Below are positions 12,658-51,505 of a DNA stretch of 64,000 nt, in pieces; position 1 is the stretch's first letter, and each line of letters opens with the position of its first letter. Source of the stretch: an uncultured Rhodospirillaceae bacterium. GTDB taxonomy: Bacteria > Pseudomonadota > Alphaproteobacteria > Rhodospirillales > UBA2165. The stretch lies in assembly GCA_913020445.1 (NCBI GenBank), contig CAJWAR010000004.1, positions 21,608-85,607 of the forward strand, given 5' to 3'. A program made the translations under genes and the position numbers. The notes beneath the pieces are model-generated. The model made no database searches. It was given only the letters and a program-made list of their open reading frames with translations, and was not told the origin of the DNA.

Positions 12658-12742
12658 AATTCAGGTTTTCCGTTAAAACCGCCTCTGTCCCCGCCATATC
12701 CCCTAAACAGCAATATGGGTATGCAAAGGGACACTTATTTAT

Positions 12743-29890: not shown

Positions 29891-30775
29891 TTATGCACTC
29901 AGGCGTTGCTCAATAACTGCATTGCGCATTGATTTTTGTAATTTTTCGAAAGCCCGCACTTCAATTTGGCGAACCCGTTCACGAGATATACCATATTCCT
30001 GACTAAGCACTTCCAAAGTAGCCGGTCGGTCTTTCAGACGGCGTTCGAAAAGAATATGACGTTCGCGTTCTTTAAGACCGCCCATAGCTGAATCTAACAG
30101 GGCGCGGCGGTCATCCAACTCTTGGCTTTCGGCCAGCAACTGTTCTTGATCTTGCGTTTCATCGACCAGCCAGTCCTGCCATTCTCCATCACCTTCTTCG
30201 CGCAATGGAGCATTAAGAGAGTTATCAGGTTTAGCCAAACGGCGGTTCATCGAGACAACATCATTTTCGGGAACGTTTAGTCGATCAGCGATTTCAGTTA
30301 CATGTTCCGGCGTCAAATCGCCTTCTTCCATCGCCTTCATCTGAGCTTTGAGTTTGCGCAGGTTAAAGAACAATTTCTTTTGCGACGCTGTTGTTCCCAT
30401 TTTGACCAATGACCATGAATGCAGAATATATTCCTGCATGGCGGCTCTGATCCACCACATGGCATAGGTGGCGAGACGGAAACCACGGTCCGGGTCAAAT
30501 CGCTTAACAGCTTGCATCATACCGATGTTGCCTTCGGAAATAAGTTCACCGACGGGCAATCCGTAGCCACGATATCCCATGGCAATTTTTGCCACTAAAC
30601 GGAGATGAGAGTTAACCAACAAATGAGCTGATTCATGGTCTTCTTTTTCCAACCATGCCTTCGATAGCGAAACCTCTTGTTCCGGTTTCAGCATCGGGAA
30701 TTTTCGAATTTCTTGGAGATAGCGAGATAGGTTCGCTTCTGGTGAGATTGTTAATCCAAGTGTTTGTATTGCCAT
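29891..30775 (-). CDS. rpoH: RNA polymerase sigma-32 factor RpoH
   Basis: RpoH box QKKLFFNLRKLK plus sigma-70 regions 2 and 4. Confidence 0.95.
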   Translation of the reverse strand: MAIQTLGLTISPEANLSRYLQEIRKFPMLKPEQEVSLSKAWLEKEDHESAHLLVNSHLRLVAKIAMGYRGYGLPVGELISEGNIGMMQAVKRFDPDRGFRLATYAMWWIRAAMQEYILHSWSLVKMGTTASQKKLFFNLRKLKAQMKAMEEGDLTPEHVTEIADRLNVPENDVVSMNRRLAKPDNSLNAPLREEGDGEWQDWLVDETQDQEQLLAESQELDDRRALLDSAMGGLKERERHILFERRLKDRPATLEVLSQEYGISRERVRQIEVRAFEKLQKSMRNAVIEQRLSA

Positions 30776-33167: not shown

Positions 33168-33842
33168 CTAATAGCTGCGCGTATCCGGCAGAGTTACCAA
33201 AATACGGCGAAACACGTCGTCTATCATCGACGGCAACATGTCTTGATCACCATTCAACCGGCCGGCTCGTATTGCAGCCGAGCCCAATGAAAAGGGAGAC
33301 AACGGCAACCCGCCATCACTGCGATCAGTTGAGTGTTCGCCTCGCCATAGCGAATCGCCGCTCAAGCCCGAGATGATCTCCAGGCCTAAATGAACCCGCC
33401 GGCTCGCCCAAATTAAGGCAAAGTTTTGCTCGATGCCGCGAATTGATGGAATGGCTAAGAACCGGCAGACCCGGCCTCTATAACGGTAGCCGGCAAAATA
33501 TCGCCGGTCGGTTGGGTTGGTAAGATCCAGGGCCAGGCGGCGAGTCAATCTGCGCCGCTCCTCAGGCCCGATCACGTGTTCAATCTTACCTCGTAAATGG
33601 CGAGCGGCGGCTCGTTCAATGAGTATTTTGTCTTTTGCCTTTGCTTTTCCGCGAGCCGGCAAAACAATGACACAGTCAGGCGCCGCGCGATAATAGGCTT
33701 TGGAAACTTCATATTTAACCGTCCGTGCATCGGGCGATTTATTTGAATTTGACGAGGTATCATAGCTTCGATAGGTCGTCTGCAGACAGCCACTTAGGCC
33801 GATGCCGAAAATAATAATTATCGCTGGATGCAATTTAATCAC
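33168..33842 (-). CDS. Putative lipoprotein of unknown function; last gene of cluster operon A
   Basis: GTG start. Lipobox GLSGC after a hydrophobic h-region. A resemblance to LpoB/DUF799-type lipoproteins is only an impression. Confidence 0.65.
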   Translation of the reverse strand: MIKLHPAIIIIFGIGLSGCLQTTYRSYDTSSNSNKSPDARTVKYEVSKAYYRAAPDCVIVLPARGKAKAKDKILIERAAARHLRGKIEHVIGPEERRRLTRRLALDLTNPTDRRYFAGYRYRGRVCRFLAIPSIRGIEQNFALIWASRRVHLGLEIISGLSGDSLWRGEHSTDRSDGGLPLSPFSLGSAAIRAGRLNGDQDMLPSMIDDVFRRILVTLPDTRSY

Positions 33843-33844
33843 AC

Positions 33845-34777
33845 CTACAGCCTCCGTCCACGGGGACAGGCGAGCTGAATGCGTCCCTTTTGGCGCACGC
33901 CATCGGCAACAATATCGGTAACGAGAATTTTGCTGCCGTTGAGTTGATAGCGCGCTCGGATGGTTTTTCGGGAGCGATACCCAGCGCCAATAATCTGGCC
34001 CATGCCACCGAGCACAAAAGCATCCATTTGGCGGGTGAAGATGCGCATTGGTATCAATGATGCAACGCCGGTTTGTTGCTGCCTGATCCGGTTAATCTCC
34101 TGCGCTTCTGCAGTCACCGATCGGCCTGAAATTTGCCGCATGAAGGTGGAATAACGATCGAGATTGATCTGCCATTTTTCGCCTAACCGGCTATCGCTGA
34201 CAAACAATCGGTCATGGCGGTCAAGCAACGCAATGCGCATGCCGTGACATTGCACCAAGAGCTGATAAAGCCGTGATTTTTCCTGGCCACTATCAGGCCA
34301 GGCAAACTCGATTGACGGACCTGAGCCATGTTCCAAAAGACGCAATAACGTCCGGCCCTTTTCAACAATTTTTTTCGTTTTGGAAACCGTCCGAATAATC
34401 TCAGCGGCCGATGTGCGTTTTATCGTCACCTTTTTTTGATGTTTTTGCGGCTTGGGCTTTGTTCTTAAAGATTTTGGCTTCAAGGCCTTTACAGTTTTAG
34501 TAATTTCTTGGCGCGGCAGGGTTTTCATAGGCACCGCCTTTATCGCGACGTTAACCTTTGGCGGTGCCGGTAAGACAATAGTCTGTGGCGGCATTGGTTT
34601 TTGCACCGCTGGCTTAACAACCAACTGCGGGATCGGCCTGGGTTCGTTTTTAGTCGATTGTTTTTCCGCTATCGGTACGTCCAGCCAATTCAGCAGCACA
34701 ATAGCCAAAACAATTAGGCTAAGTGCCGCTGATAAAAAGGACCCCATCCACCGTCTACTCAGACAGTTTGTCAGCAA
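33845..34777 (-). CDS. Bitopic membrane protein with an N-terminal TM, a Pro/Lys-rich spacer and a C-terminal globular domain (TonB/TolA-style architecture)
   Basis: TM FLSAALSLIVLAIVLL. Spacer KPAVQKPMPPQTIVLPAPPKVN...KPKPQKHQKK. A domain of about 190 aa follows. The start is TTG 34777 or ATG 34747. Confidence 0.6.
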   Translation of the reverse strand: MLTNCLSRRWMGSFLSAALSLIVLAIVLLNWLDVPIAEKQSTKNEPRPIPQLVVKPAVQKPMPPQTIVLPAPPKVNVAIKAVPMKTLPRQEITKTVKALKPKSLRTKPKPQKHQKKVTIKRTSAAEIIRTVSKTKKIVEKGRTLLRLLEHGSGPSIEFAWPDSGQEKSRLYQLLVQCHGMRIALLDRHDRLFVSDSRLGEKWQINLDRYSTFMRQISGRSVTAEAQEINRIRQQQTGVASLIPMRIFTRQMDAFVLGGMGQIIGAGYRSRKTIRARYQLNGSKILVTDIVADGVRQKGRIQLACPRGRRL

Positions 34778-35249
34778 ACATCATCTCCATATCGTGGGCC
34801 AGACGATTAAGCTCACGCCGCCGTTCAGCGCGGCTCATGAATTTTTGCTCAGGTAGTTCCGGCTTTTTCCGCGCCATCGGGGCGATCAGTTCCGGCGATT
34901 CCGGCTTAGCGGCGACAATTTTTTGTGTCGGTGCCGGCTTGCTCACATGTTCGCTTAATAGCGGCACTTTATTAACCGGCCGCATGGCAACATCAACGGG
35001 TTGAATTTCGGGCTTTTTTTCAGCCTGATTTTTCGGCGCTTCTTCGGCAATTTCGAATTTTTCCCAATTTGCTTTAAAGCTCTCCAGTTTCTGGCGAGCC
35101 CGTTCGGCCAGTTCACGGCCTTTGTCGGTGGCATCACCAGACGCAACAGCAGGCAGAAGATCAGCAATTGGTTTAATCGGTTGGCCGTCAACGGCGACCA
35201 AATAGAGAATGGCAATCACCGCCATGAGATTAAAAAACATAAATTTCAT
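34755..35249 (-). CDS. Bitopic membrane protein with an N-terminal TM and a Pro/Lys/Glu-rich periplasmic region
   Basis: TM FFNLMAVIAILYLVAV. Its ATG overlaps the stop of the upstream gene as ATGA. Confidence 0.6.
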   Translation of the reverse strand: MKFMFFNLMAVIAILYLVAVDGQPIKPIADLLPAVASGDATDKGRELAERARQKLESFKANWEKFEIAEEAPKNQAEKKPEIQPVDVAMRPVNKVPLLSEHVSKPAPTQKIVAAKPESPELIAPMARKKPELPEQKFMSRAERRRELNRLAHDMEMMFADKLSE

Positions 35250-35779
35250 TTGATTTCTCCTTTTATCAGCAGGGTTCCTTGGGCTTCTTGAGAGGCGTGG
35301 GAGATCGACATCAAGGCGCGCAGCAAAGCCGCCAAGGGAAGACCAACAACCGTCGTCATAAAAGCCAGGCTGAAATGTTCGGTCAGGCTTCGAATGATGG
35401 TTTGAACGGTTTCCGGCGTTAGCTCTTGACCGGCCAGCGAGCCAATGCCGAGACTGATGCCAAGCAAGGTAAAAGTCAGCGCTAAAGTCGAGACGCCGTT
35501 AGCCGCGTGTAAGCCGCTTTCCAGCCACAGCTCGGCATCTTGCAGTCGCTTCCGGCGATGGGCCTCACTAAGTCGCACCCAGCAGAAAAAAACCAGAAAC
35601 ACCAAGCTGCTGAGCATCACCAAAAAGGCACTGCCAAATACTTTGAGCGCCCAGCCGGTAATTTCACCGACGCCGAAACTGGTTGTTGCAACCAAGACAG
35701 CGACAGTAATTACCAACAGGCCCAAAATTAGACTAAGACTGCGCGAACCGGCATGGATGAAGCTAAAGATTGCCTGCAT
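35246..35779 (-). CDS. MotA/TolQ/ExbB-like proton-channel family protein (tentative)
   Basis: Four hydrophobic helices. The C-terminal part, LALTFTLLGISLGIG...AFMTTVVGLPLAALL, resembles the MotA_ExbB signature (LGLLGT ... TTxxGLxxA). Confidence 0.5.
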   Translation of the reverse strand: MQAIFSFIHAGSRSLSLILGLLVITVAVLVATTSFGVGEITGWALKVFGSAFLVMLSSLVFLVFFCWVRLSEAHRRKRLQDAELWLESGLHAANGVSTLALTFTLLGISLGIGSLAGQELTPETVQTIIRSLTEHFSLAFMTTVVGLPLAALLRALMSISHASQEAQGTLLIKGEIK

Positions 35780-35787
35780 AATTCCCT

Positions 35788-36177
35788 CTAGCGCCGCCGT
35801 AAGGATGCGGATAAAACGCTTTGCGTCGTCATGCCAAGCTGGTTTAACCAGGCATCGACAATCGAGATATTTTTCTCGGTCGCGCCATGAACCAAAAACG
35901 TCAAATCATAGTTTTCAAAGGCTTGGCGCACCGTCGGCGTGTTGCGTCCGGTTAGTTTTTTGTCGCGCAACACCATGCGCTCGAGATCAATCAGCCGCAC
36001 TTTGGCGCTGGCTATTTTCGCCTGACGATCTTTGATCGCGATCTCGGGGTTCAACATTGTATTGATGGTAAGCGCGCGTTCGCGCTCGAGATTTTCCAGA
36101 GTTCCGGCTTCGGCCAGCGCTGAAAAGCTAACAACAGCTGAAAAAACAAATGCGGTGATGATTGGTTTGGTTTTCAT
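35788..36177 (-). CDS. Exported hypothetical protein
   Basis: Signal peptide MKTKPIITAFVFSAVVSFSALA. Confidence 0.6.
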   Translation of the reverse strand: MKTKPIITAFVFSAVVSFSALAEAGTLENLERERALTINTMLNPEIAIKDRQAKIASAKVRLIDLERMVLRDKKLTGRNTPTVRQAFENYDLTFLVHGATEKNISIVDAWLNQLGMTTQSVLSASLRRR

Positions 36178-36203
36178 TTTGGTTCTCCTAAAATTACCAA
36201 AGA

Positions 36204-37106
36204 TTAGTTGGTTAAAAAGTAATCGACGGCTTTGGCCGGTGATGAGGCCGACGGTCTATCGCTATCCGCCATCTCGGCATCCAAGGCCTGTTCTGAAAGC
36301 GCCAAGGCATCGAAGGCCACCAGCTTGGCCATATAACCAAGGATGGTTTCTTCCTGCTCAAGCACCGCAAGCTCGGCCTGTGCATCGGCCAATAATTGGC
36401 GGATATAATCTTCCTTGCTGAGCGGCTGGCCATCGACTTGCACGGATGTATTCATGCGGTGGCTTTGAATGCGGCTGGCGAGCTTTTCTATCGCCGCCAA
36501 ATTTTCCGCATATTTCACCGTGTATCTACTTTCCGGCACGACCGAGACTTGGAACAGTTTCATATCAACCTTGGCCAGCGATGATTTGAACCGCTGGCGG
36601 GCACCTTCCTGGCGGTTAACCAGCTCTTGGCGCACCGGTGTCATGCCGCGGTTTTTCTCCGCCATGCGCTTAAGCATGCGCTCGAACAATCGATGCTTGG
36701 TCCTAAGGTGCTTTTTGCGGTAGCGGTTTTTTTCGGAAATCAGCTCGAGAAAATTCCGTTTTTCGCCGAGAAACTGATGACGAAGTTCGAGCTTCAATTC
36801 GCCCTCCGCCTCTTCGATGGCATCCCGCAAATCCGCCAAAGTCTGACTTTTAAGACCGGTTTTTTCTTCCGTTTTTTGAATTGCCAGGCCGAGGGTTGAT
36901 TCCTGAAAATCATGGTCCAACGACTTTTTCAAATAGGTCGCCGGCAGTTTGATCAGCTTTTCGCTCGATTTAGGGTTCCAGGCCGGGATGTTGTTAGCAT
37001 CAGCGGCGGCATGAACCGAGGATGAGCTGGCGAGCAACGCGCCTACAGCTATCACAGCCACCGAAGCCAAAAGTTGAAACCGTATAGTTTGTTTATTATA
37101 CGACAT
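36204..37106 (-). CDS. Exported, long alpha-helical (coiled-coil) hypothetical protein
   Basis: ATG 37106 follows AAGGAG. Signal peptide ...LLASSSSVHA. The mature part is rich in heptad-like charged helices. Confidence 0.6.
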   Translation of the reverse strand: MSYNKQTIRFQLLASVAVIAVGALLASSSSVHAAADANNIPAWNPKSSEKLIKLPATYLKKSLDHDFQESTLGLAIQKTEEKTGLKSQTLADLRDAIEEAEGELKLELRHQFLGEKRNFLELISEKNRYRKKHLRTKHRLFERMLKRMAEKNRGMTPVRQELVNRQEGARQRFKSSLAKVDMKLFQVSVVPESRYTVKYAENLAAIEKLASRIQSHRMNTSVQVDGQPLSKEDYIRQLLADAQAELAVLEQEETILGYMAKLVAFDALALSEQALDAEMADSDRPSASSPAKAVDYFLTN

Positions 37107-37120
37107 CTCAGTTTTCTCCT

Positions 37121-37675
37121 TTAATTGTGTTTCCAATAGCGCACCCGACGAAGCTCGGATTTCACCCGGCTGCTGACATTGGCAGCCGACAGCTCGCCGA
37201 TGGCGGAGCGATCCCGAAGGCCTAAGAAAACTTCCATCGTGTCGGTAAAGGACGAACCGTCGGGGAAATAGAGATCTTGTCCGGGAAAGGCTTTTTTCAT
37301 TTTGCTGAGATTGACGCGGGCTTTGGCGATATCACCGCCTTTGAAATAATTTTGCACGCTAAGAGCGACCGCACGAACGCGCTCCTCCTCGCCGACTTTG
37401 GCCGCTTCCGGCCCAAGCTCCGCCTCACATTTATCCAATAACCTGGCGCTGGCGATATAGCGGGCAGCGGAAGATTCCGTTTTGGCTTTACGGTCCATTT
37501 CCAGCGCATCATCCCGGCACGAGCGATATTCCCGCATGGCTGAGATTTCGGCAAAGCGCGCCTCCCGGTAGCCAATACCCTCACGCGCAGTTTCGGTGGT
37601 GTAAAGATTACAGGCGCCCAGCGTAGCCGTGGCAGCCATTACGAAGGGTAGGCGTAAATTACGAAGATTGAACAT
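37121..37675 (-). CDS. Putative helical lipoprotein; first gene of cluster operon A
   Basis: ATG 37675 follows GGAGGA. Lipobox TLGAC. Confidence 0.65.
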   Translation of the reverse strand: MFNLRNLRLPFVMAATATLGACNLYTTETAREGIGYREARFAEISAMREYRSCRDDALEMDRKAKTESSAARYIASARLLDKCEAELGPEAAKVGEEERVRAVALSVQNYFKGGDIAKARVNLSKMKKAFPGQDLYFPDGSSFTDTMEVFLGLRDRSAIGELSAANVSSRVKSELRRVRYWKHN

Positions 37676-37715
37676 CAGCGTTCCTCCAGTTTGCAAAGTT
37701 AATTACTTAGCTTTG

Positions 37716-37742
37716 CTATGGCGGGGCCAGAGGCGGTTTTTT
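37716..37742 (-). promoter_or_regulatory. Cluster motif copy 1, promoter-like, upstream of operon A
   Basis: Coding-strand sequence AAAAAACCGCCTCTGGCCCCGCCATAG ends 40 nt before ATG 37675. It contains TGGCCC-N5-TAGCA, which has sigma-54 -24/-12 spacing. Confidence 0.55.
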
Positions 37743-37761
37743 TGAAAAAACGGGAAAAAAT

Positions 37762-37858
37762 AAAAAAAAAGCAGGCGGCCAACGATTTTTAAGAGGCCAG
37801 CACGCCTGCAAGTTGGGTACAGGTGGTACAAGGGAGGCACCTGGGAGGATTTTTATCA
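37762..37858 (-). ncRNA. Candidate small RNA with two CCUCCC (anti-Shine-Dalgarno-like) motifs
   Basis: It lies between motif copy 2 (37867-37892) and a terminator. The terminator is the hairpin GCAGGCG..GGCC / GGCC.GCCTGC at 37771-37809 followed by U9 at 37762-37770. An upstream hairpin CAGGUG-CCUCCCUUGUAC-CACCUG (37820-37843) shows CCUCCC in its loop. A second CCUCCC lies at its 5' base. No ORF is present. The 5' end is a guess. Confidence 0.45.
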
Positions 37859-37866
37859 CTCCCTGT

Positions 37867-37892
37867 CTATGGCGGGACCAGAGGGGGTTTTT
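37867..37892 (-). promoter_or_regulatory. Cluster motif copy 2, upstream of the sRNA candidate
   Basis: Coding-strand sequence AAAAACCCCCTCTGGTCCCGCCATAG. Confidence 0.5.
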
Positions 37893-38063
37893 ATGACGTA
37901 CTGGAAAAAAATGCCGTCAGGCGCGGGCCCATCCTAATTTTCTGGCCGCGTATCCATCTTCAAGAAGTTTATTCACCACAGAGTTCACAGAAAACACAGA
38001 GGATTTGGGAACGCCCCGACTCGTCACCGTAATTCGATTAAATGATCAGCGAGGCATAACCAT

Positions 38064-38759
38064 TTAGTTAATTTTCGCGTGCAACGGATCGGTAAATGCA
38101 TGTCCCCTGGCTCGGTAGGCTCTGATCGCTTGAGCAATTTCAGCGGAGCGGTGTTTCAAACCTGTCCGGATCCAGGGATATCCGGAAAGATCAACCAATT
38201 TGGTCATCGTCGCCCCTTTAAATTCGTTAGGGAAATTAGAGACGATCGTACTGGACATCAGGATCGCAGCAACTCTCCCGTGTTTAAGCATTCTGACTTG
38301 GCTATCAAATTTGGGAACATTCAAAATATTTTTTCTGCCCCGCACCAATTTCATCTGCCAACGGGCTCCCTCATTTATGGCAATTGACTTGCCGGCAAGG
38401 CTCTGCAGTGAGGTAACTTTCGGGTCAAAAGAAATTAACAATCCAGATCCATTGGTCAGCGGCTCTTCTATCATATGCAAATAATCTCCGGCAAACTTCT
38501 GATAAGCTCTGGCTCGGAGTATCAGGCCATCTAATTTACCACTTTTGATATCACGGGTCGCCCGCTTAAAGGGCGCATTGACTATTTCAATGCAAATACC
38601 CGCCTCTTTCAATGCTTGGACAAAATTACGTTTAATGTTTTGAAATACTGCTGTGGACTGATTTAAATCAGGATATTTGAGACATTGACCAGCTTGAATC
38701 GATGTAGTTGGAATGAGGAAATAACAAAGAAAAAAAATCAAGATGATGGCAAAACGCAT
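38064..38759 (-). CDS. Periplasmic solute-binding-protein-like protein (SBP family 3 type), orphan
   Basis: Signal peptide ...TTSIQA. Pattern FKRATRDIKSGKLDGLILRA fits family-3 SBP lobes. No permease or ATPase gene is adjacent. Confidence 0.5.
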   Translation of the reverse strand: MRFAIILIFFLCYFLIPTTSIQAGQCLKYPDLNQSTAVFQNIKRNFVQALKEAGICIEIVNAPFKRATRDIKSGKLDGLILRARAYQKFAGDYLHMIEEPLTNGSGLLISFDPKVTSLQSLAGKSIAINEGARWQMKLVRGRKNILNVPKFDSQVRMLKHGRVAAILMSSTIVSNFPNEFKGATMTKLVDLSGYPWIRTGLKHRSAEIAQAIRAYRARGHAFTDPLHAKIN

Positions 38760-38972
38760 AATTTTTTACTTACCCAATAGATATTAACCAATCTCCAATA
38801 TGGGGATTAATTGAAGCGATTCAAGAAAATGGTGTGCTCGGATTAATGCCGCGGAAATACAACATGTTGCACTTCGCTCGTGAGTCCACAGAGGCAAGTC
38901 AAGTCCGGGGTGACGAGTTTTCCTGTTGAAGTAGGTTCATTATATATGACGACAGAAGTAAATGTGTCCTAG

Positions 38973-40505
38973 CTACTCAATCACCGTAACCACAAGCGAC
39001 GCTTCCGAGATCGCCGCGTAAGGTAATTTGCGGAATAAAGCCGACAGATTATCAACGCGGGTTCGGCTCATTGGCTTTAACGATCTGCCCCGCAAATCCC
39101 GTGGCAAATCCTCAGTAACATCACGACTGGCGCCGAAACATTTGACTAATTCCCGACCCACTGGCGCGGTTACTTTGAGATCAAACGGAAATAATTTTTT
39201 ACCGGGTATCGAGTGGATTTTGCCACCCGCTAACCGGGGCGATTTAAACTCGCGCCAAAAATGCGGGTTAGGGAATATTTGGATCACCTTGCCATCGGCT
39301 TGATGGTAAAAGCAGTAGGTCCAGGCATCTTCACCAAGGCGCAACAACAGAGTCATTTCATCGCCGATTTGATAGACCGGATTTCTGCCTCTGGTACTGG
39401 TTAAATTAAATTCAAACGGCCCCAAGCCATCATTTTCGCGTAAATGCTCAAAATCGCCAGCCGGTTTGATCCGAATGCCTTTGACTGCACTAATCGGCAT
39501 GCGACCGGACCAGGAAAGTGTATAGCCGGCGGGATTTTTGAGGGTCAGCTTTAACTCGATAACCCGGTTGAGCACCCAATATCGGCCGGTCAGCAAATAC
39601 GAAGATTGAATTTTAGAAAATTTGTTCTCCTTTAGCGGCATGCCATCAAGCTCCCGCATCAAACGAGACTCTTTGATTTTTAAACTACGCCCGGTGAGCA
39701 CGTTCGAATACGCCGCCTGCAGCGCCGTGACAAACCGGTCTTTAAAAAAAGCCGCAAAGGGTGGCTGCAACCCAGTTTCCTGATAATGCAAACCGCCGAC
39801 CCGTACTTCCGAAATATCGCGTAAATTATCGGCAAAAAAGTTGGAGGCCTGCGACACCGCCTGGTCGACGGTCAATAAATCATTGAGGGTGGATTTATCC
39901 TGCGCCTTAAGCGGCAATATCACCCGCGCGGTTTGGGCGAGTATGGTGCCATCCATGCGCGCCACCTTATAGCCCAATGAAAGCCCGCCTTCGACCAAAC
40001 GCATGCGGCCTTGAATAAGAGCGTCAACATTACGCGCTTTGGCCATCAAGGCGGCGATCGGATCATCGTCCTCATCCAACGCACCGGTTGCCGACATATC
40101 GGCGATAATGGCTTTCAAAGCATCGCGGGCGACAATCTCGATATTACCTTCTTGGGTTTTGAGCAATGCCGCCAGCAAGCGGTCATTAAATCCGTCGGCA
40201 ATGCTTTTGGCGATGGGAATTTTGTCTTTATGAAACGGCCAAACGGCAAACCGCAATTTTTTCCCGCCGATATAGGCGTAGTCTTTTTTGAGATAGGCTT
40301 TTTCACTTGAAGAATTCATCACAGGTGACTGGTTTCTTGACGTCGAATGGATGCCGGACATAATTTCCTTGGCGAATTCTTCAAAGACATTTCCGGATGG
40401 CTCGGCGACCGGCGATTGGGCTTGGGCTTGGGTTGGGACCGCGGCATTGGCAACAACCAAACCAGCAACAATTAATGCGGAACATATGCCAGAAACGTGT
40501 TTCAT
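38973..40505 (-). CDS. Exported protein with an LpoB/CsgG/FlgO-like N-terminal region and a DUF4384-like C-terminal domain
   Basis: ATG 40505 overlaps the upstream stop as ATGA. Signal peptide ...VPTQAQA. C-terminal YQIGDEMTLLLRLGEDAWTYCFYHQADGKVIQIFPN recalls DUF4384. Confidence 0.6.
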   Translation of the reverse strand: MKHVSGICSALIVAGLVVANAAVPTQAQAQSPVAEPSGNVFEEFAKEIMSGIHSTSRNQSPVMNSSSEKAYLKKDYAYIGGKKLRFAVWPFHKDKIPIAKSIADGFNDRLLAALLKTQEGNIEIVARDALKAIIADMSATGALDEDDDPIAALMAKARNVDALIQGRMRLVEGGLSLGYKVARMDGTILAQTARVILPLKAQDKSTLNDLLTVDQAVSQASNFFADNLRDISEVRVGGLHYQETGLQPPFAAFFKDRFVTALQAAYSNVLTGRSLKIKESRLMRELDGMPLKENKFSKIQSSYLLTGRYWVLNRVIELKLTLKNPAGYTLSWSGRMPISAVKGIRIKPAGDFEHLRENDGLGPFEFNLTSTRGRNPVYQIGDEMTLLLRLGEDAWTYCFYHQADGKVIQIFPNPHFWREFKSPRLAGGKIHSIPGKKLFPFDLKVTAPVGRELVKCFGASRDVTEDLPRDLRGRSLKPMSRTRVDNLSALFRKLPYAAISEASLVVTVIE

Positions 40506-41788
40506 GGTGTGATCTTGTGTCTCCACGTCAAAACCGAAAATCCTTTCTGAGCTAACGTTTTGACCGCCTGATTCCAGTCGCTTTGCCTTTTGAGCCATTG
40601 CATTTCGGCGGCGACGGGTTCCTTGCCGATAATCGCATTGAGGCGGTATTGCAGCGGTTCCGCCAACCTGCGCGGTACATCAATCGTCCACGACTGCTTG
40701 CCCTTAGTCTTAGTAATGCCGGAAAGCAGCTTTGGTTTAACATTGCCGCGGACAAAGGCCCCGCTTTCAATATCGAGATTGGCGGCAATAAACTTGGATT
40801 TTGCCCCGAGATCAAAGTCAAATTTCAGACCACACAGATTTTTCAAGGTACTGACGGCAATATCACCATTGGAACTTTGGATCGGCTGAGTTTCAGCTTC
40901 AATGCGGCCAAAATGCACTTTCGCGCAGGTGCCCCCTGCCGGTGGCCGGCGTTCCGACACGGTAATTGTCTCGGCTTTACGTGGTTGAACCACTTTTTTT
41001 TCAGCCAATTTCTTAGGCTTTGGCGGTGGCGGTAATTTCTCGGCAGACTTTTGCACCGCTTTTTCCGCAGCAGGCTTAACCGCCTCTTGATTGACCCCGC
41101 TCATATAGGCCCACAGGATGAGAACAGAGATCAGCAAAGTGCCGATTATCGATGCCACCGCGCTGCTGGTACCGGTCTGGCTTTTTGCCGAGCCGGCAAT
41201 TGGCTGAGCATCTGTCGGCCCCAAACCCAACTGAGCAATGAGTTCGGCAGTACTCGAAAGACCTACAAGCTCAACACCTTCAGGCAATTCAGCTTGGTCA
41301 ATTTCAACTAGATTTTCAGCCTGTGGTACAAGGGCTAATACCGGCACGCCGGCGTCATGCCAATTATCAAAAAAAGTCTTCGATGCCGCTACTTTTTCAG
41401 CGATATGGCCAACCGAGACGACGCCTAAATCATAATCAACTTCACCGGTGAGCCAAATTACTTGATCGGGTGAAGCGTCTTTATCGGCAAGCTCGGCACT
41501 TTCGCTCGCGACGACCGCATGGGCGGCAAAGACCCCCAATTGCCAGCTTTTGCCGACGCCGATGCTTTCGGTAACATCCATGCGGAAAGAGGCATAATCG
41601 AAAGGGCCAAATTCCCGCTCAATTACCCCGCTGCCGCGTTTGACGAAATCGTCATAATCACCGCTGATGGGCAAAATATCCGAGCCACGCTTGAGGCAAA
41701 CCATAGAATGCGGCGCATATTCGGGCGTCAGGCGGTCGATTTGAGCCGGACCGCCTGTTGTCGCTACAAATATTGCTAGTCTTTTCAC
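40502..41788 (-). CDS. Membrane protein with a cytoplasmic Lon-protease-like (S16, Ser-Lys dyad) domain, one TM, a Pro/Lys linker and a periplasmic domain
   Basis: GTG start overlapping the upstream stop as GTGA. The N-terminal domain runs parallel to the Lon proteolytic domain: GKSWQLG (cf. GPSAG), LTGEVDYDLGVVSVGHIAEKVAAS (cf. MTGEI..G.V.PIGG.KEK..AA), VLALVPQAEN. TM IIGTLLISVLILWAYM. Confidence 0.5.
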   Translation of the reverse strand: MKRLAIFVATTGGPAQIDRLTPEYAPHSMVCLKRGSDILPISGDYDDFVKRGSGVIEREFGPFDYASFRMDVTESIGVGKSWQLGVFAAHAVVASESAELADKDASPDQVIWLTGEVDYDLGVVSVGHIAEKVAASKTFFDNWHDAGVPVLALVPQAENLVEIDQAELPEGVELVGLSSTAELIAQLGLGPTDAQPIAGSAKSQTGTSSAVASIIGTLLISVLILWAYMSGVNQEAVKPAAEKAVQKSAEKLPPPPKPKKLAEKKVVQPRKAETITVSERRPPAGGTCAKVHFGRIEAETQPIQSSNGDIAVSTLKNLCGLKFDFDLGAKSKFIAANLDIESGAFVRGNVKPKLLSGITKTKGKQSWTIDVPRRLAEPLQYRLNAIIGKEPVAAEMQWLKRQSDWNQAVKTLAQKGFSVLTWRHKITP

Positions 41789-42330
41789 CGAATAAAGGCT
41801 TCCGTTTTTGGATCACTTAACAGACGTACCAAATCTGCATCCCGGTCGGCAATGATTTGCGCCACACCGTCACGGATTTTAGGCAGCGGGAAACGGCTGC
41901 AATTGGCTTCAACATCACACACCACCAACGTCGTTGGCGTGACCTTCTCGTTGCCCGAAAGCTCGACAATCACATATACCTGGTTTGGCTCAGCCCGGGA
42001 TGGCTCCATTCGAATACGGCAGCCTTTGCCTTCGCGGGACAAAATATCGTCGGACTTTTTCGCTGAACTGGCCGCCATCGCTTCCGGTACATAATAGACC
42101 GCATTTTTCTCCAGCATGTCGCGATAGATCCGGCGCAAAGCCAAGTTTTCGCCCAAGGCTTTCTCAACAGTTTCGTTTTCCGCACCATTGGCATAAGCAA
42201 ACAAGGCCGACGGCGAAACAGATGATAGTTTTTCACTTGAGCTCAATAATTCATCGATCTGCGACAATTCAGAAAATTTTTGTTTTGCCGCTTGAAGTTT
42301 TTCATCACCTGGAATTTTATAATCACTCAT
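41785..42330 (-). CDS. Cytoplasmic hypothetical protein (181 aa)
   Basis: ATGA overlap with the upstream gene. No signal peptide and no recognisable motif. Confidence 0.55.
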   Translation of the reverse strand: MSDYKIPGDEKLQAAKQKFSELSQIDELLSSSEKLSSVSPSALFAYANGAENETVEKALGENLALRRIYRDMLEKNAVYYVPEAMAASSAKKSDDILSREGKGCRIRMEPSRAEPNQVYVIVELSGNEKVTPTTLVVCDVEANCSRFPLPKIRDGVAQIIADRDADLVRLLSDPKTEAFIR

Positions 42331-43970
42331 TGGACGTCTCCATAGAGCAGATTAAACTGATTGCTAAAGACCTGTTTGTCTTGATCAAACTTGCTGTTGA
42401 GGTCTTCACCGTCTTTATCCAGCGCCGCCATGCGCGTCAAAAATGTTTCGAGTTGGCCCGATATACTCAGCAGCGCCCCGGCACCCATCCGGAACCCCTC
42501 AATGCCGTCGGGATCTTCAAGCATATCTTCATTAAACCCTTTCCGGGTAAGTTTGCTAAAAGCGTCTACGGCATCTGCCATGAAATCGGAACTCATCTCG
42601 ATGTCGTCCAGATTGTCATTATGGCGGGCTGCTTCAAAAACGCTATCTGGATTTTGCGCGCCAAAGGCGACAATATTATCACCCAAATCAGCCGCATCCT
42701 GTCCGGCGAGAACAAAGTATGTCGCCTTTTGCAATTGACGGACATGGGCCAGGATCGTTTGAAACTGCTCGCGTTTATCATCGTAAGCCATCGCATCACG
42801 GCAATCGAGGCGTTGGCGAACCGAAGTTTCGCCGCGCTTGACCTGCAAATCAGTTGTTATCGCAGTTTGGATCGAGCCAAAGACCTCCAATTGCATGAAG
42901 GAGCGCGGCAAACGGCCGGCATAGGGCCCGTATTGCATCAACGCTTCGATGGGTTTGCGCTCACCTTCTTTTTTAAAGAATTTAATTTGATTAGCGGGCT
43001 CTGCATCGAGAATATTCAACGGTGATTGCCAATCGCCTAAACCATCCAGGCCGTCACTTTGATCGTCGGGCTCAATTTCCTGAGCCTCAAAATCAGTGCC
43101 GATTATGGCGGCATTTTCAATGGTGTCCTGCTGGTCAGCTTCTTCCAGGGCGCGCATGAAGTTAACAAAGCCATCGAACACGGTCTTATAGGCGCGAAAT
43201 TCGCCAACCGTGGAAAACTCCAGCCAGAAATCCAAAACTGCCGGATCATCAATACAAATTTGCCCATCTCTTTCTCCGGCATTTTCCCGAGCTTTGAGAA
43301 AACCGAAAATCCGGTCAAATTTTTCGTCATGCTGAGCCCGGGTTAAATGTTCCCGGCGGTATTTTCTGAGCCGTGCCGATATTCTGTTACTGGCGGTTTT
43401 GATCGCTTCAAGATCAATTGACGCTTGCGACAAGTCATCGAAAATCTCATTAAGTTCGGTATAGAAGTCATAGTTATCCAAACCGGTGAGAAATTCATAA
43501 AGCGCCGCCAAAAACGGCATGCGGCCAAAGCGCACTTCAAAGCCATCATCGTCATAGTAAACGCCAATGCCATTTTCGGTGCGCTCGAAACCCGGTTTCA
43601 GCCAGTCACCAAACTCAAGCTTTTCATCAAGGGCGGCGCGATAGACCGCCGGCAGTGCTTTTTCAACACCGAGAAAAAATAAAGCGCGTTCGTCACTGCC
43701 GCCCTCGCTCAACGCATCAATGGCGCTGACCAGATGGCAAAGCTCAAAAATCGGGGCATCTTTGTGTGGCCCGCCGGCGGAACCGACAATGAACTTGGCC
43801 AGCCACACCATCACCGGGGCGTGGCTGTATTTAGTGCTGCCGTCAGATGCCGTCGCTTCGCCAATTGCCTTAAAATCGGCCAATAAGGGGCCGGAAGCCC
43901 CTGACCGGGTAATTGTCGAAACTGCATCATCCATCTGGTCATTACTCGTAATAATAGTCTGGGTTTCCAT
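42327..43970 (-). CDS. Cytoplasmic acidic hypothetical protein (about 547 aa)
   Basis: Long ORF with no TM, no Walker A and no motif I recognise. ATG 43970 (METQT) follows AGGA; TTG 43997 is an alternative start. Confidence 0.6.
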   Translation of the reverse strand: METQTIITSNDQMDDAVSTITRSGASGPLLADFKAIGEATASDGSTKYSHAPVMVWLAKFIVGSAGGPHKDAPIFELCHLVSAIDALSEGGSDERALFFLGVEKALPAVYRAALDEKLEFGDWLKPGFERTENGIGVYYDDDGFEVRFGRMPFLAALYEFLTGLDNYDFYTELNEIFDDLSQASIDLEAIKTASNRISARLRKYRREHLTRAQHDEKFDRIFGFLKARENAGERDGQICIDDPAVLDFWLEFSTVGEFRAYKTVFDGFVNFMRALEEADQQDTIENAAIIGTDFEAQEIEPDDQSDGLDGLGDWQSPLNILDAEPANQIKFFKKEGERKPIEALMQYGPYAGRLPRSFMQLEVFGSIQTAITTDLQVKRGETSVRQRLDCRDAMAYDDKREQFQTILAHVRQLQKATYFVLAGQDAADLGDNIVAFGAQNPDSVFEAARHNDNLDDIEMSSDFMADAVDAFSKLTRKGFNEDMLEDPDGIEGFRMGAGALLSISGQLETFLTRMAALDKDGEDLNSKFDQDKQVFSNQFNLLYGDVQ

Positions 43971-44018
43971 TTTTCGTTTTATCCTGTTTAAGTTCAACCC
44001 TAAATGTCGTTCTGATGC

Positions 44019-45020
44019 TTAACCGTTGCGCCAATAATTGCGGCGTCGGGGAGAGGATGAAAAGTCGTCAAGCGTGTGAGCGGCTCTAAGACGGCGGTCT
44101 TCCAGCGTTGAATTGCTATTCGCATAACGGTCATATCGCCAAGGGCGATAAGAACGATCCCGCCGATATCTCCGACCTCTGTTATTTCTTCCAGAAATCC
44201 ATGAGGTCCGAATGCGAGTATTAGATCCTGCGTAACGGAGATCGAAACGACCATTAAAGTAAGAACTAAACTGATCATACTCCCGCCAGGCTGCTTTCTG
44301 TCCGGATTTGCGGCAAGGTCTGTCGAAATCATTCCAAGCGTAATCACGGCCTCTATTGCGCCCAAAACGATTCCAGCGCCGGTTCTGATTCAGGGGGACC
44401 CAGCGGTCATTGTCGCGATTATCCTTTTCGTCATCCCAGCGAACTCGTGGCTGATCGTTGCTGCGCTTTTTCCAGCGCTGCTCCCATTTGTCGCCTTTAT
44501 CGTCGTCATTAAAGGCGATGGCCCAAACTTTGTTCTGTTCGGCATAGCGCTGCTGCCAGCGTTGCACCAGGCGCACATAGGATTTGGTAAATTCATGGGG
44601 TTCGGCGTTGCTGCCCTTACCCTTCAAGGTGCCGCCATTGTAATGCGAAAGTGCCAGCTCCCAATTGCCACCATATTGGCGGCGCAGTTTGGCCAGATAG
44701 TCGATGCCAAGCTGAATGTTAAGCCGGGCCTGCCAAAGCTCGTCTTTATCAACACCGAATTCATCCTTGGCGGTTTTCGGCATTAACTGCATGACACCAC
44801 GCGCCCCTGCCGTGCTCAGCGCGGTTGGATTAAAATCCGATTCGACTTTAGCCACAGCCAGCGCCAAAGCCGGCGGCACCGAAGAGTTTTGTGCTTCTTC
44901 GACAACTATTTTTTTTATTTCAGCGCGCGACACAGCGAGCGCCGGATTGATAATGGCAATAATCGCAATTGCGGCGATAAGGCCAGCAAGACTAAGTCTC
45001 AGAAAGTTTTGCAATGTCAT
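44019..45020 (-). CDS. SLT-family lytic transglycosylase with a long Arg/Trp/Asp/Asn-rich C-terminal tail
   Basis: Signal/anchor LSLAGLIAAIAIIAIINPALA. SLT core ALALAVAKVESDFNP...GARGVMQLMP...YNGG. The tail of roughly 180-190 aa is low-complexity (RWKKRSNDQPRVRWDDEKDNRDNDRW...RRYRRDRSYRPWRYDRY). Confidence 0.8.
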   Translation of the reverse strand: MTLQNFLRLSLAGLIAAIAIIAIINPALAVSRAEIKKIVVEEAQNSSVPPALALAVAKVESDFNPTALSTAGARGVMQLMPKTAKDEFGVDKDELWQARLNIQLGIDYLAKLRRQYGGNWELALSHYNGGTLKGKGSNAEPHEFTKSYVRLVQRWQQRYAEQNKVWAIAFNDDDKGDKWEQRWKKRSNDQPRVRWDDEKDNRDNDRWVPLNQNRRWNRFGRNRGRDYAWNDFDRPCRKSGQKAAWREYDQFSSYFNGRFDLRYAGSNTRIRTSWISGRNNRGRRYRRDRSYRPWRYDRYANSNSTLEDRRLRAAHTLDDFSSSPRRRNYWRNG

Positions 45021-45466
45021 TTTATTTTCTCCTTTAATGTCATTAGCCAGGCGTCGTTCAGGGTTGTGACAATCAAATTTGCATTGCCGAACCGGTCCCG
45101 AACCGAGATTGCCTGCCGCAAAGGTAATTCCGGCGCGACGGCCAGAAATTGAATTTTCTCGGATTGAAGTTGATGTGACGCCAAGGGGTTGAGGCCGGCA
45201 TCATAGAGTTGGCCTTTGTAAAAAACTGCCATTTTCTCCGGTTGGATGGCCGTTACACTGCCGCTCTTCCCATCTTGTGATTTCGTCGAACTGGCTCGCT
45301 TGATTGAAACGCCCGAAATATCGAGCAACACGTCTGCAGTCTTTTTGATCTTCCCAACCGTTCCGGTGCTCATCGACACCATGGTCAACACCATCAAGCT
45401 GAAAAACGCCATTGATAGCGCCAGAGCAATTTCAACCAGGGCATTATTTTCTGAACCAGAAGGCAT
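45017..45466 (-). CDS. MotB/ExbD/TolR-like single-TM protein (tentative); first gene of cluster operon B
   Basis: I prefer ATG 45466 (MPSGSENN); the track ORF start at 45610 would bury motif copy 3. The TM NALVEIALALSMAFFSLMVL has an acidic residue near its cytoplasmic end, as in stator/ExbD proteins. A periplasmic domain of about 100 aa follows. Confidence 0.45.
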   Translation of the reverse strand: MPSGSENNALVEIALALSMAFFSLMVLTMVSMSTGTVGKIKKTADVLLDISGVSIKRASSTKSQDGKSGSVTAIQPEKMAVFYKGQLYDAGLNPLASHQLQSEKIQFLAVAPELPLRQAISVRDRFGNANLIVTTLNDAWLMTLKEKIK

Positions 45467-45507
45467 GTCGCTATTTTCCCACTCGCGATGATTAACTGAT
45501 GCCTTAT

Positions 45508-45533
45508 CTATGCGGGGCCCAGAGCAGGTTTTT
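45508..45533 (-). promoter_or_regulatory. Cluster motif copy 3, upstream of operon B
   Basis: Coding-strand sequence AAAAACCTGCTCTGGGCCCCGCATAG ends 41 nt before ATG 45466. Confidence 0.5.
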
Positions 45534-45586
45534 CGCCGGCGGCGAAGAAAAATTGCATTTTTATAAAATTTTTTTTGAGTGCGGAG

Positions 45587-45612
45587 AAAAAACGCCTCTC
45601 GCCACGCCATAG
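45587..45612 (+). promoter_or_regulatory. Cluster motif copy 5, upstream of the S1 protease gene and divergent from copy 3
   Basis: AAAAAACGCCTCTCGCCACGCCATAG ends 54 nt before ATG 45667. Confidence 0.5.
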
Positions 45613-45666
45613 CTCCTCACAAGCGCCTTTCGAGGGGTGCACAACAATCTTATGTGAGGTACAGAA

Positions 45667-46506
45667 ATGACTAATTTTAAAAAGGTGGCTGCGGCCACAC
45701 TAACGGGCGCCGTTGTTTTAATGAGTGGTACTGGGGTAAAGGCAGGAGGGTCTGGAACAGGATTTTTTGTTAACCCCAACGGATACATCGTCACCAACAA
45801 CCACGTCGCCATCGGAACTCTGCGATTTAAAGATGGTACGCAAATTCCATTTCCCTGCCGATCTATCACAGCCAAAATCGGACACACTACTTACCGGGCA
45901 AAACTGTTAGCAAGAGACAAACAAAACGATTTGGCACTTCTGAAAATTGATCTAGGAGAACAAAAACAACGGCACTTTGTTGCTTTGAAGTCAAATCAAT
46001 CGGTCAACGGCTGGACGAACCTTGGTGGCGTTTTAGGTCTACAAACCGGGATTAGCAATGGCCACAATAGAATATCCAATTCATCTTTCAGCTATGTTCG
46101 ATTAGCGAAGAATCAGGTCACCCACGGTGACATTGTTCATGTATTCGGCTACCCACTCGGAAATTTCATTTCTTCCCAAATGAAAATTGCGACGGGAGCG
46201 GTAAATGCAACCATGGGATTTGACGATAACTCCAGTAGATTTCAACATGACGCTGCCGCCTATCCCGGGAACAGCGGCAGCCCCGTAATGGATAAGGCCG
46301 GTAATCTCGTTGGTGTTCATGTCTCGGGAGCTGGAATTAACACCAGGCTTAAATTTGCCATTAAAGGAAATGTCTTGAAGGAATTCCTGAAGCTTAATGA
46401 TGTGCCGTTTGACGAAGTTCAAAATGACACACCGGTTTCCGCTCAGGAATTATACCGACAAGCCAAACACTATATCACCTACATGAATTGTTACGACTAC
46501 CATTAA
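45667..46506 (+). CDS. Secreted trypsin-like (S1) serine protease
   Basis: Signal peptide ...GTGVKA. Triad contexts TNNHV, NDLALLKI and GNSGSPV. Confidence 0.8.
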   Translation: MTNFKKVAAATLTGAVVLMSGTGVKAGGSGTGFFVNPNGYIVTNNHVAIGTLRFKDGTQIPFPCRSITAKIGHTTYRAKLLARDKQNDLALLKIDLGEQKQRHFVALKSNQSVNGWTNLGGVLGLQTGISNGHNRISNSSFSYVRLAKNQVTHGDIVHVFGYPLGNFISSQMKIATGAVNATMGFDDNSSRFQHDAAAYPGNSGSPVMDKAGNLVGVHVSGAGINTRLKFAIKGNVLKEFLKLNDVPFDEVQNDTPVSAQELYRQAKHYITYMNCYDYH

Positions 46507-46531
46507 CGTCTTCAACCCCTCCTTTTCCTAG

Positions 46532-46565
46532 CCCCGCCCACTTCAACGAGTGCGGCGGGGTTTTT
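46532..46565 (+). terminator. Rho-independent terminator after the protease gene
   Basis: CCCCGCCCAC / GTGCGGCGGGG stem followed by TTTTT. Confidence 0.7.
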
Positions 46566-46645
46566 CTGTGCCGTTTTTTCACCACTTTTTTGGGCTAAAT
46601 TTGGCAAAAATGTGCATAACAGGTAATATTTTTCAAGTTCTTCAG

Positions 46646-46671
46646 AAAAACGGCCTCTGGGCCCGGCATAT
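46646..46671 (+). promoter_or_regulatory. Cluster motif copy 4, upstream of 46723-47613
   Basis: AAAAACGGCCTCTGGGCCCGGCATAT ends 51 nt before ATG 46723. Confidence 0.5.
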
Positions 46672-46722
46672 CGAGGTTAGGTAATCGATCTTTATTGTTT
46701 TAAAAGTTAGGGAGTAACCTCG

Positions 46723-51430: not shown

Positions 51431-51505
51431 CAACTGTTGCAAAAACCACACATATTTTAAATTAAGTGCCAGGCACCTAATTAACCAGGCACCTAATTAA
51501 CTATT

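Follow-up and report, generated by a model that had tools for sequence, protein, structure and literature searches.

The stretch analyzed here is a 64,000-nucleotide (nt) segment of a contig from an uncultured Rhodospirillaceae bacterium, called the window below, and its subject is a short intergenic element on the minus strand, at 37762 to 37862, that is predicted to specify a small RNA (sRNA). The element lies between a gene for a 231-amino-acid (aa) protein and the first gene of a lipoprotein operon, and it has a copy of the same promoter motif on either side. A first-pass annotation had proposed a candidate sRNA here, carrying CCUCCC motifs and expressed from a motif copy with no open reading frame (ORF) behind it. 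The individual sequence features that it described all proved to be present on the minus strand with correct coordinates. The evidence throughout is in silico. The features of the locus, in the direction of transcription, are listed below.

38064 to 38759, minus strand: near-orphan gene for a 231-aa protein, between a DUF4384 gene and the RNA; no Pfam family.
37867 to 37912 and 37716 to 37761, minus strand: arms of a 46-nt direct repeat, 80% identity, spacing 151 nt.
37864 to 37897, minus strand: promoter motif copy 2, 31.2 bits by position weight matrix (PWM); the sole copy with no ORF behind it.
37762 to 37862, minus strand: predicted sRNA of about 95 to 101 nt, with its 3' end in the U-tract.
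37843 to 37848, minus strand: first CCUCCC, a direct reading of the sequence; its 3' end gives CUCCCA (37847 to 37842).
37820 to 37843, minus strand: 6-bp hairpin specific to the window, CAGGUG (37843 to 37838) with CACCUG (37825 to 37820).
37812 to 37837, minus strand: conserved seed region, CCUCCCUUGUACC and then CCUGUACCCAAC, matching in alignments the CCUCCCUGUA(A)CC(A)AAC of the homologues.
37762 to 37809, minus strand: intrinsic terminator, a two-part G+C-rich stem (37771 to 37809) and U9 (37762 to 37770).
37713 to 37746 (core, 37741 to 37716), minus strand: promoter motif copy 1, 31.4 bits by PWM, heading the lipoprotein operon.
37121 to 37675, minus strand: gene for a 184-aa lipoprotein (lipobox LGAC), the first gene of the operon and the anchor for the comparative work.

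Promoter copy 2 has an A-run at the -35 position, CTCT in the spacer, and CCATAG at the -10 position; its sequence, AAAAACCCCCTCTGGTCCCGCCATAG, ends at 37867, and its core, CCCCCTCTGGTCCCGCCATAG, spans 37867 to 37887. Beyond it the minus strand reads ACAGGGAGUGAUAAAAAU and then CCUCCC (37848 to 37843). The 5' end of the RNA would fall at 37858 to 37863, 5 to 9 nt past the -10 element. A second CCUCCC (37832 to 37837) is held in the 12-nt loop, CCUCCCUUGUAC (37837 to 37826), of the 6-bp hairpin. The terminator hairpin that follows was skipped by a consensus terminator scan solely because its loop is longer than 8 nt. Downstream of it come promoter copy 1 and the ATG of the lipoprotein gene at 37675, an order that agrees with the earlier placement of copy 1 (37713 to 37746) and its operon, there called operon A (gene at 37675 to 37121), after the terminator.

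The roughly 95 nt behind copy 2, previously described as free of ORFs, hold no credible one. Two mechanical ORFs with GTG starts do overlap them on the minus strand, of 45 and 47 aa (37703 to 37840 and 37716 to 37859), and these are what could be brought forward in favor of a very small protein encoded here. Both lack a ribosome-binding site, extend across the terminator, U-tract, and promoter copy 1, and are without a counterpart in the homologous elements described below. Those homologues lack a start codon upstream of the seed, share no common start codon or reading frame, and differ from one another by insertions and deletions that are not multiples of three. We regard a coding function as extremely improbable.

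When folded, the 112-nt stretch reached -35.8 kcal/mol, compared with -23.7 ± 3.1 kcal/mol for dinucleotide shuffles (z = -3.9; 0 of 200 shuffles equaled it). A transcript that begins upstream of the GGGAG at 37863 to 37859 would, in its minimum free energy fold, pair that GGGAG with the first CCUCCC. The probability that this CCUCCC is unpaired is 0.01 with GGGAG (37859 to 37863) in the transcript and 0.75 with a start at 37858, so its exposure hinges on the exact start site. The CCUCCC in the loop of the window hairpin is unpaired with a probability of 0.85.

The promoter motif was characterized with a 34-nt PWM trained iteratively on the regions upstream of orthologous lipoprotein genes (80 loci, one genome per species). 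The PWM consensus is approximately GAAAAAAC, followed by five variable positions and then CT..CC.T.CCATA(A/G). In 74 of the 80 genome loci the motif stands 4 to 60 nt before the start codon of the orthologous lipoprotein gene, and this fixed short distance to start codons argues for its being a promoter. Within the window, the motif pattern gave six matches against 0.03 expected. At a cutoff of 14 bits the PWM returned exactly these six sites, against 0 to 1 in shuffled windows, and no others were added at a cutoff of 12 bits. Across the window and the 80 loci there were 78 matches of at least 20 bits, and 77 of them have an ORF start 4 to 60 nt downstream; the exception is the copy at 37864 to 37897, upstream of the predicted RNA. 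Besides copies 1 and 2, the window copies lie at 12669 (dprA-topA), 45538 (minus strand, SLT operon), 45582 (a trypsin-like protease), and 46641 (a 296-aa protein). The first of these (12669 to 12702, plus strand, 25.3 bits) is upstream of dprA (12743 to 13885; Pfam DNA_processg_A, E = 6e-71), which is followed by topA, and its presence there would make the regulon not purely one of the envelope. The 46-nt direct repeat consists of both promoter copies together with about 20 nt of T-rich upstream sequence.

No sigma factor was assigned to the motif. A sigma-54 promoter was rejected: copy 1 of the window has GG-N10-GC, but neither the GG nor the GC is conserved across species. The -10 element of Escherichia coli sigma-32 is CCCCATNT (PMC6687850). 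The C-rich CCATA half of the motif resembles that element, and its -35 part is without the TTG of sigma-32-type promoters; a sigma-32 (RpoH) reading of the motif can be taken as a lead only. The sole gene of the sigma-70 family detected in the window is an rpoH (29891 to 30775, minus strand), about 2.4 kb past the end of the lipoprotein operon.

Homologues of the element were found in four other contigs (L087, L091, L093, and L027). L087, a Tara scaffold whose lipoprotein is 76% identical to that of the window, was found through the flanking protein, and there the stop of the upstream gene is followed, in order, by a motif copy, UUAUACAGCAACCUUUAAAUACCUCCCUGUACCAAACUC, a terminator ending in U7, another motif copy, and the lipoprotein gene. 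A metagenome scan with a DNA pattern made up of CTGTACC and the terminator stems, without CCTCCC or the promoter, brought out the two true homologues L091 and L093 along with two chance matches. A covariance model trained on L087, L091, and L093, with the window left out, had one match in 64 kb, and this was the window element (37763 to 37847, 27.5 bits, E = 2e-4). Applied to 88 loci, the model yielded L027 (1687 to 1766, 14.8 bits), a divergent homologue in which a motif copy, UUUAGUAGAUCCUCCCUGUAACCAAACUC, a terminator unrelated in sequence, and another motif copy precede the gene. A fuzzy search for the 16-nt seed across 1.47 Mb gave no further instance. In L091, the sRNA homologue and promoter copy 1 are followed by a decayed second copy of the operon (1296 to 2140): its lipoprotein gene breaks off after 56 codons and runs into what survives of the 177-aa gene. 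The same contig also has, from 8052 onward, an undamaged paralogous operon preceded by a motif of its own.

A common order is seen in the five lineages: a promoter copy, 10 to 21 variable A/U-rich nt, CCUCCCUGUA(A)CC(A)AAC, a short linker, a hairpin, and a U-tract (U5 to U9), after which each lineage has a second promoter copy and then the operon. The motif copy upstream of the seed is significant in all five, with scores at the same relative position of 24.1 bits in L087, 16.7 in L027, 12.7 in L093, and 8.4 in L091, and the promoter copies of the window and of L087 each follow their own lineage's variant of the consensus. The four homologues have one linear seed, CCUCCCUGUACC, with a single CCUCCC and no seed hairpin, and across the five elements the seed is predicted to be unpaired with a probability of 0.83 to 0.93. 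The window element is longer than the homologues, by 10 nt in the alignment or by about 21 nt (AGGUGCCUCCCUUGUACCACC) as judged by eye, and the extra sequence supplies the second CCUCCC and forms the 6-bp hairpin. Since that hairpin stems from sequence found only in the window, it is not a feature of the family. Tandem Repeats Finder called no repeat at the doubled seed of the window, leaving a tandem-repeat origin unsupported. Also set aside, as too weak, was a 5' helix of ACAG with CUGU around the seed, which is possible in the window, L087, and L093, requires a wobble pair in L091, and is absent in L027. The earlier expectation of conserved hairpins and motifs was thus borne out for the CCUCCC, the position of the terminator, and the promoter copy, and it failed for the 6-bp hairpin and the duplicated CCUCCC, both confined to the window lineage.

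What has been kept among the homologues is the seed. It is common to L087, L091, and L093 save for one base absent in L091 and L093. Between L027 and L087, whose flanking proteins are each 58 to 76% identical to the window protein, a single inserted base separates the two seed-linker sequences (shared sequence, CCUCCCUGUA(A)CCAAACUCGC), and 30 of 41 aligned positions of the terminators differ. A kept seed with replaced terminators is the pattern expected of a seed combined with a terminator that matters only for its structure. The close variants L091 and L093 show no change in the 55 positions of seed and terminator versus 12 changes in 104 flanking positions (Fisher's one-sided test, p = 0.005). 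This comparative evidence supports the CCUCCC as a conserved, exposed part of the predicted RNA.

Conservation of this kind might also reflect a function of the C-rich sequence as DNA, either as a regulator site about 75 to 95 bp before promoter copy 1 or as a degenerate third promoter. The 5' part of the predicted RNA, TAAAAATCCTCCCAGGTGCC (37851 to 37870), matches the 5' half of the motif at 9.9 bits, which places it in the top 0.0125% of window positions, and the corresponding score in L087 is 6.4 bits. The seed and the copy 1 A-run are also spaced alike in L087, L091, and L027, about 73 to 77 nt apart (a coordinate estimate). However, no such resemblance to the motif is present in L091, L093, or L027, and the seed is more conserved across lineages than the promoter spacers are. 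The sequence moreover always stands on the transcribed strand directly between promoter and terminator, and most species use the same promoter without it. A DNA site is, in our judgment, very unlikely to be what has been conserved.

A more substantial alternative starts from the upstream genes. The element could be mainly a 3' untranslated region (UTR) with a terminator or insulator, serving the 231-aa gene in the window and a DUF4384-OmpA gene in L087 and L093; copy 2 would then be a by-product of promoter duplication, and any short RNA a by-product or a fragment derived from the 3' UTR. No significant structure was predicted in the 174 nt that separate the end of the 231-aa gene from motif copy 2 (z = -0.34), so the RNA's terminator is probably also the first strong terminator of the 231-aa gene, no other terminator being found between that stop and the window hairpin. 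In L087 and L093, the upstream gene ends about 15 to 20 nt before the motif copy, and the L001/L088 lineage has a terminator at this place without a second motif or CCUCCC. The two promoter copies form a 46-nt direct repeat of 80% identity, and in L091 and L093 copy 2 has a weak -35 part. What this explanation leaves unaccounted for is a 16- to 20-nt unpaired sequence that is conserved while the terminator stems change, and a motif copy retained at a fixed short distance upstream of it in five lineages. In addition, relatives with 83 to 84% identity have no terminator at all between the operons, which indicates that insulation is not required. We consider it unlikely as the principal explanation, although the two readings can coexist, as they do for sRNAs that share the terminator of an upstream gene.

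The first-pass annotation had offered, as its own alternative, a terminator-controlled leader of operon A. In such a cis-acting leader or attenuator, transcripts from copy 2 would either stop or read through, and the C-rich part would antiterminate or mask a ribosome-binding site. The position immediately upstream of the lipoprotein operon in 5 of 5 cases is in keeping with this, as are the GGAGG ribosome-binding site of the downstream gene in the window and a weak alternative helix in L087 and L091 (-8 to -10 kcal/mol), in which CCUGU of the seed pairs with GCAGG of the 5' terminator arm. A full-strength promoter nevertheless lies between terminator and operon in all five lineages and is the sole promoter in about 75 other species, making the operon independent of read-through. 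The alternative helix is weak and is absent in L027, where the terminator arm is unrelated, and the ribosome-binding sites of the neighboring genes in L087 and L091 (GGAGAG and GAGUGAG) keep no complementarity to the seed. The element therefore does not stand between a sole promoter and an ORF, and mutually exclusive folds are not conserved. An attenuator seems improbable, and so does the leader first proposed.

The element is probably a functional RNA gene, judging from its promoter copy, its terminator, its lack of a conserved ORF, the conservation and accessibility of its seed, and its homology over five contigs, each of which is observed in silico. Where transcription starts, that a separate transcript exists, that it acts in trans, on which targets, and with what chaperone, if any, are inferred. 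With somewhat less assurance, we lean toward the full model of a small noncoding RNA of about 100 nt that pairs in trans. The orphan promoter copy, together with the presence of the element in five contigs, also upholds the earlier suggestion of an sRNA co-regulated with the surrounding cluster.

Under this model, the RNA would be transcribed from its own copy of an alternative-sigma-type promoter (A-run at -35, C-rich CCATAG at -10), and because the same motif would drive the neighboring envelope operons and dprA-topA, it would be made together with the cluster. Shortly ahead of the next promoter copy, the strong intrinsic terminator would end transcription. The active part would be the unpaired C-rich seed near the 5' end, CCUCCCUGUACC(A)AAC, which in the window lineage would have grown to two CCUCCC motifs, one of them displayed in a hairpin loop. 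Pairing of the seed with G-rich, Shine-Dalgarno-like mRNA sites would block translation or bring about decay, the expected target being a GGUACAGGGAGG-like site in the start region of an mRNA. The RNA would in this way act as the post-transcriptional arm of the motif's regulon.

Targets were sought as ungapped complementary runs and with RNAduplex in all start regions of the window and of the L027, L087, L091, and L093 contigs; these 64 kb and the short contigs cover little of any one carrier genome. The targets put forward earlier were ribosome-binding sites within the cluster, but the start regions of cluster genes did not form significantly better duplexes than did those of the remaining genes (p = 0.21 for the window seed and 0.058 for the consensus seed) and showed no extended complementarity. 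The best duplex of the consensus seed in the window was with the gene for a 224-aa lipoprotein (33168 to 33842), at -14.8 kcal/mol. A GGGAGG within the coding region of the 184-aa lipoprotein gene (37561 to 37578) was considered as a seed match, found to be fuzzy, and judged to be due to chance.

Several observations weigh against a functional RNA acting in trans. No conserved, outstanding, or extended complementary target site was found in the window or in the homologous contigs. The terminator of the window would be accounted for just as well if it served the upstream genes. In L091 (8.4 bits) and L093 (12.7 bits), the promoter copy has a weak -35 part, which makes transcription from an own promoter less certain there, and part of the sequence similarity could reflect an origin by promoter duplication rather than a function of the RNA. 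The element is also absent from the syntenic position in 79 of 80 species genomes. Among the closer metagenomic relatives examined, only the L087 species has it, and the closest relatives of the carriers are without it (L085 and the P0003 contig; L044, L034, and L048; L001). Given its absence from most relatives, the element is dispensable, an accessory to the cluster and not an integral part of it.

Comparison with known RNA families gave no assignment. Rfam 15 had no match at the gathering score in the whole window, and permissive searches gave nothing relevant at E ≤10 for 37650 to 38070 or at E ≤5 for L087, L027, and L093, returning chance matches only, such as CRISPR-DR43 (E = 0.51), snoRNAs, and miRNAs. 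The first-pass annotation had likened the exposed CCUCCC loops to the seeds of the CcsR/cuckoo families. The cuckoo RNAs (CcsR1-4/RSs0680a-d, alpha-r14) of Rhodobacterales and Rhizobiales have two to four adjacent hairpins with CCUCCUCCC in each loop (PMC4615179). The CcsR RNAs have an RpoHI/RpoHII promoter, are co-transcribed with a small upstream gene, RSP_6037, which is hypothetical and uncharacterized, and are followed by a terminator-like hairpin (PMC4615179). The present element resembles them in being alphaproteobacterial, in its exposed C-rich motifs of anti-Shine-Dalgarno character, in its alternative-sigma-type promoter and terminator-like hairpin, and, in its window version, in the multiplication of a C-rich module. 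It differs in that the window has CCUCCC twice, once in a loop, and no CCUCCUCCC, whereas the four homologues have a single linear CCUCCC(UGUACC). The gene upstream is here the 231-aa near-orphan or DUF4384-OmpA, where CcsR has RSP_6037, which we take to encode a DUF1127 protein. The promoter has no TTG at -35, and the hosts are marine Rhodospirillales known from metagenome-assembled genomes (MAGs). Membership in the cuckoo/CcsR/alpha-r14 group was rejected on these differences in hairpins and CCUCCUCCC, upstream gene, and promoter, and on the lack of a match to any Rfam covariance model; the seed-type assignment to CcsR/cuckoo did not survive.

A second alphaproteobacterial group with C-rich motifs, AbcR1/AbcR2 (alpha-r15) of Brucella, Agrobacterium, and Sinorhizobium, has an M1 motif, CUCCCA, in a hairpin loop and an M2 motif, GUUCCC, between hairpins (PMC5461406). 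These single-stranded motifs pair with the 5' UTRs or coding regions of mRNAs (PMC5461406). The first motif of the window reads CCUCCCA and to that extent is similar, but CUCCCA occurs in the window only, the homologues having CUCCCU, GUUCCC is absent, the seed of the family is CCUCCCUGUACC, and context and promoter are different. Membership was rejected on the M1 and M2 motifs and the lack of an Rfam match.

In function, the nearest analogy would be with RybB, MicA, and MicL of enterobacteria. These are short, sigma-E-dependent RNAs with a 5'-proximal seed and an intrinsic terminator. They share their sigma promoter with envelope-maintenance genes, with which they rise together, and they are core genes of enterobacteria; MicL shares its terminator with the upstream gene. 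There is no sequence or Rfam relationship to them, and the present element differs also in being patchily distributed. It does have, in silico, the generic make-up of a base-pairing sRNA: an own promoter, a terminator with a U-tail and no conserved ORF, and a conserved, accessible seed. We take it to be, as far as sequence allows, a new family of a familiar kind of sRNA, lineage restricted and accessory, in a mostly unannotated envelope cluster. The discovery of new sRNA families is routine. If confirmed, this one would give the abundant, uncultured marine Rhodospirillales a new family whose seed is of the anti-Shine-Dalgarno type, and it would provide a handle on a regulon that the promoter motif ties to a widely conserved, scarcely annotated envelope cluster. 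The six motif copies of the window, dprA-topA included, would define the co-regulated genes, of which the RNA would be the negative or fine-tuning branch.

The distribution of the element among relatives bears on its origin. Direct inspection of the 80 genomes found a second motif upstream of copy 1 only in L027. Relatives whose lipoprotein is 83 to 84% identical to that of the window (P0003 contig and L085) have neither the RNA nor the terminator. In L085, the stop of the DUF4384 gene lies within about 15 nt of a single motif and the lipoprotein gene; in the P0003 contig, for which the gene map only was used, an 80-nt intergenic gap separates the DUF4384 and lipoprotein genes. L001 and L088 to L090 (lipoprotein, 71 to 72% identity) have a terminator at the syntenic position with neither a second motif nor CCUCCC. 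The 5' flank of that terminator (L001, 3860 to 3925, and likewise in L088 to L090), CUCCAAAAUCGGCGG, resembles ACCAAACUCGCAGG of the sRNA family, and the region, which the covariance model does not pick up, may be what is left of a decayed copy of the element.

In a neighbor-joining tree of the lipoprotein, the window, L087, and L027 fall in one clade, interleaved with noncarriers (L085, L001/L088, L044, L034, L048, and L002 to L008). The tree leaves out L093, which has no lipoprotein sequence, and L091, in which the copy adjacent to the sRNA is truncated; the N terminus of both resembles that of L087. The simplest reading of this pattern would be an ancestral element with at least four losses, and recombination between the 46-nt promoter repeats would delete the RNA gene cleanly. 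The element shows no similarity to plasmid and phage records and appears not to be mobile. The resemblance of its 5' part to the motif's 5' half, described above, hints that the body of the RNA was born from promoter duplication.

These elements can be drawn together in a more specific proposal, which we offer as a speculation that is unlikely to hold in full. In it, the RNA is the post-transcriptional arm of an unrecognized stress or assembly regulon of marine Rhodospirillales, born by tandem duplication of the regulon's promoter, with the middle copy decayed to a C-rich seed, the whole repeatedly lost by recombination between the repeats, and the seed duplicated in one lineage. The regulon meant here is the unassigned alternative-sigma-type promoter with the 16-gene Ton/Tol/Mot-like envelope cluster that has no annotated families. 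In any case, the element offers a case study in sRNA evolution, lying between direct-repeat promoters, present in three branches of one clade, absent from sisters, and carrying a doubled seed in the window. Were the promoter-duplication reading true, it would present a traceable de novo birth of an sRNA, with modular growth and loss.

Turning to the neighboring genes, the 184-aa lipoprotein belongs to a family in neither Pfam nor NCBIfam. Most of its 156 homologues come from marine Rhodospirillales MAGs, and the scan of one genome per species gave 80 lipoprotein loci, including cultured Terasakiella and Curvivirga and Magnetovibrio MAGs. The 231-aa protein has 3 matches in 5.8 billion proteins, the two others being Kordiimonas-like with 37 to 40% identity. 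Since its gene is absent from relatives with flanking genes of 83 to 84% identity, it is a lineage-specific insertion.

Both genes lie in a cluster of about 16 genes (33168 to 47613) whose products are almost all without a Pfam or NCBIfam family; searches of the cluster proteins against Pfam, NCBIfam, and PDB sequences were almost all empty. The exceptions with families are an SLT lytic transglycosylase (44019 to 45020), a Trypsin_2 protein (45667 to 46506), and the DUF4384 protein (38973 to 40598). At least the lead lipoprotein gene and the promoter motif are conserved in at least 80 species, and the cluster has homologues in cultured genera, among them Curvivirga and Terasakiella; the latter has the motif as well but lacks the RNA. 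The 177-aa product (35246 to 35779) has a sub-threshold match to MotA_ExbB (E = 0.047), and its gene is followed by those for a 164-aa protein with a single helix and a Pro/Lys-rich 310-aa protein. This match, with the two proteins that follow, suggests that the cluster may encode a Ton/Tol/Mot-like motor. Farther along the window, an A/T-flanked repeat, TTAAGTGCCAGGCACCTAATTAACCAGGCACCTAATTAA (51466 to 51500), lies between a gene for an OmpR-type regulator (50723 to 51430) and the next gene, where it could be a terminator or an operator.

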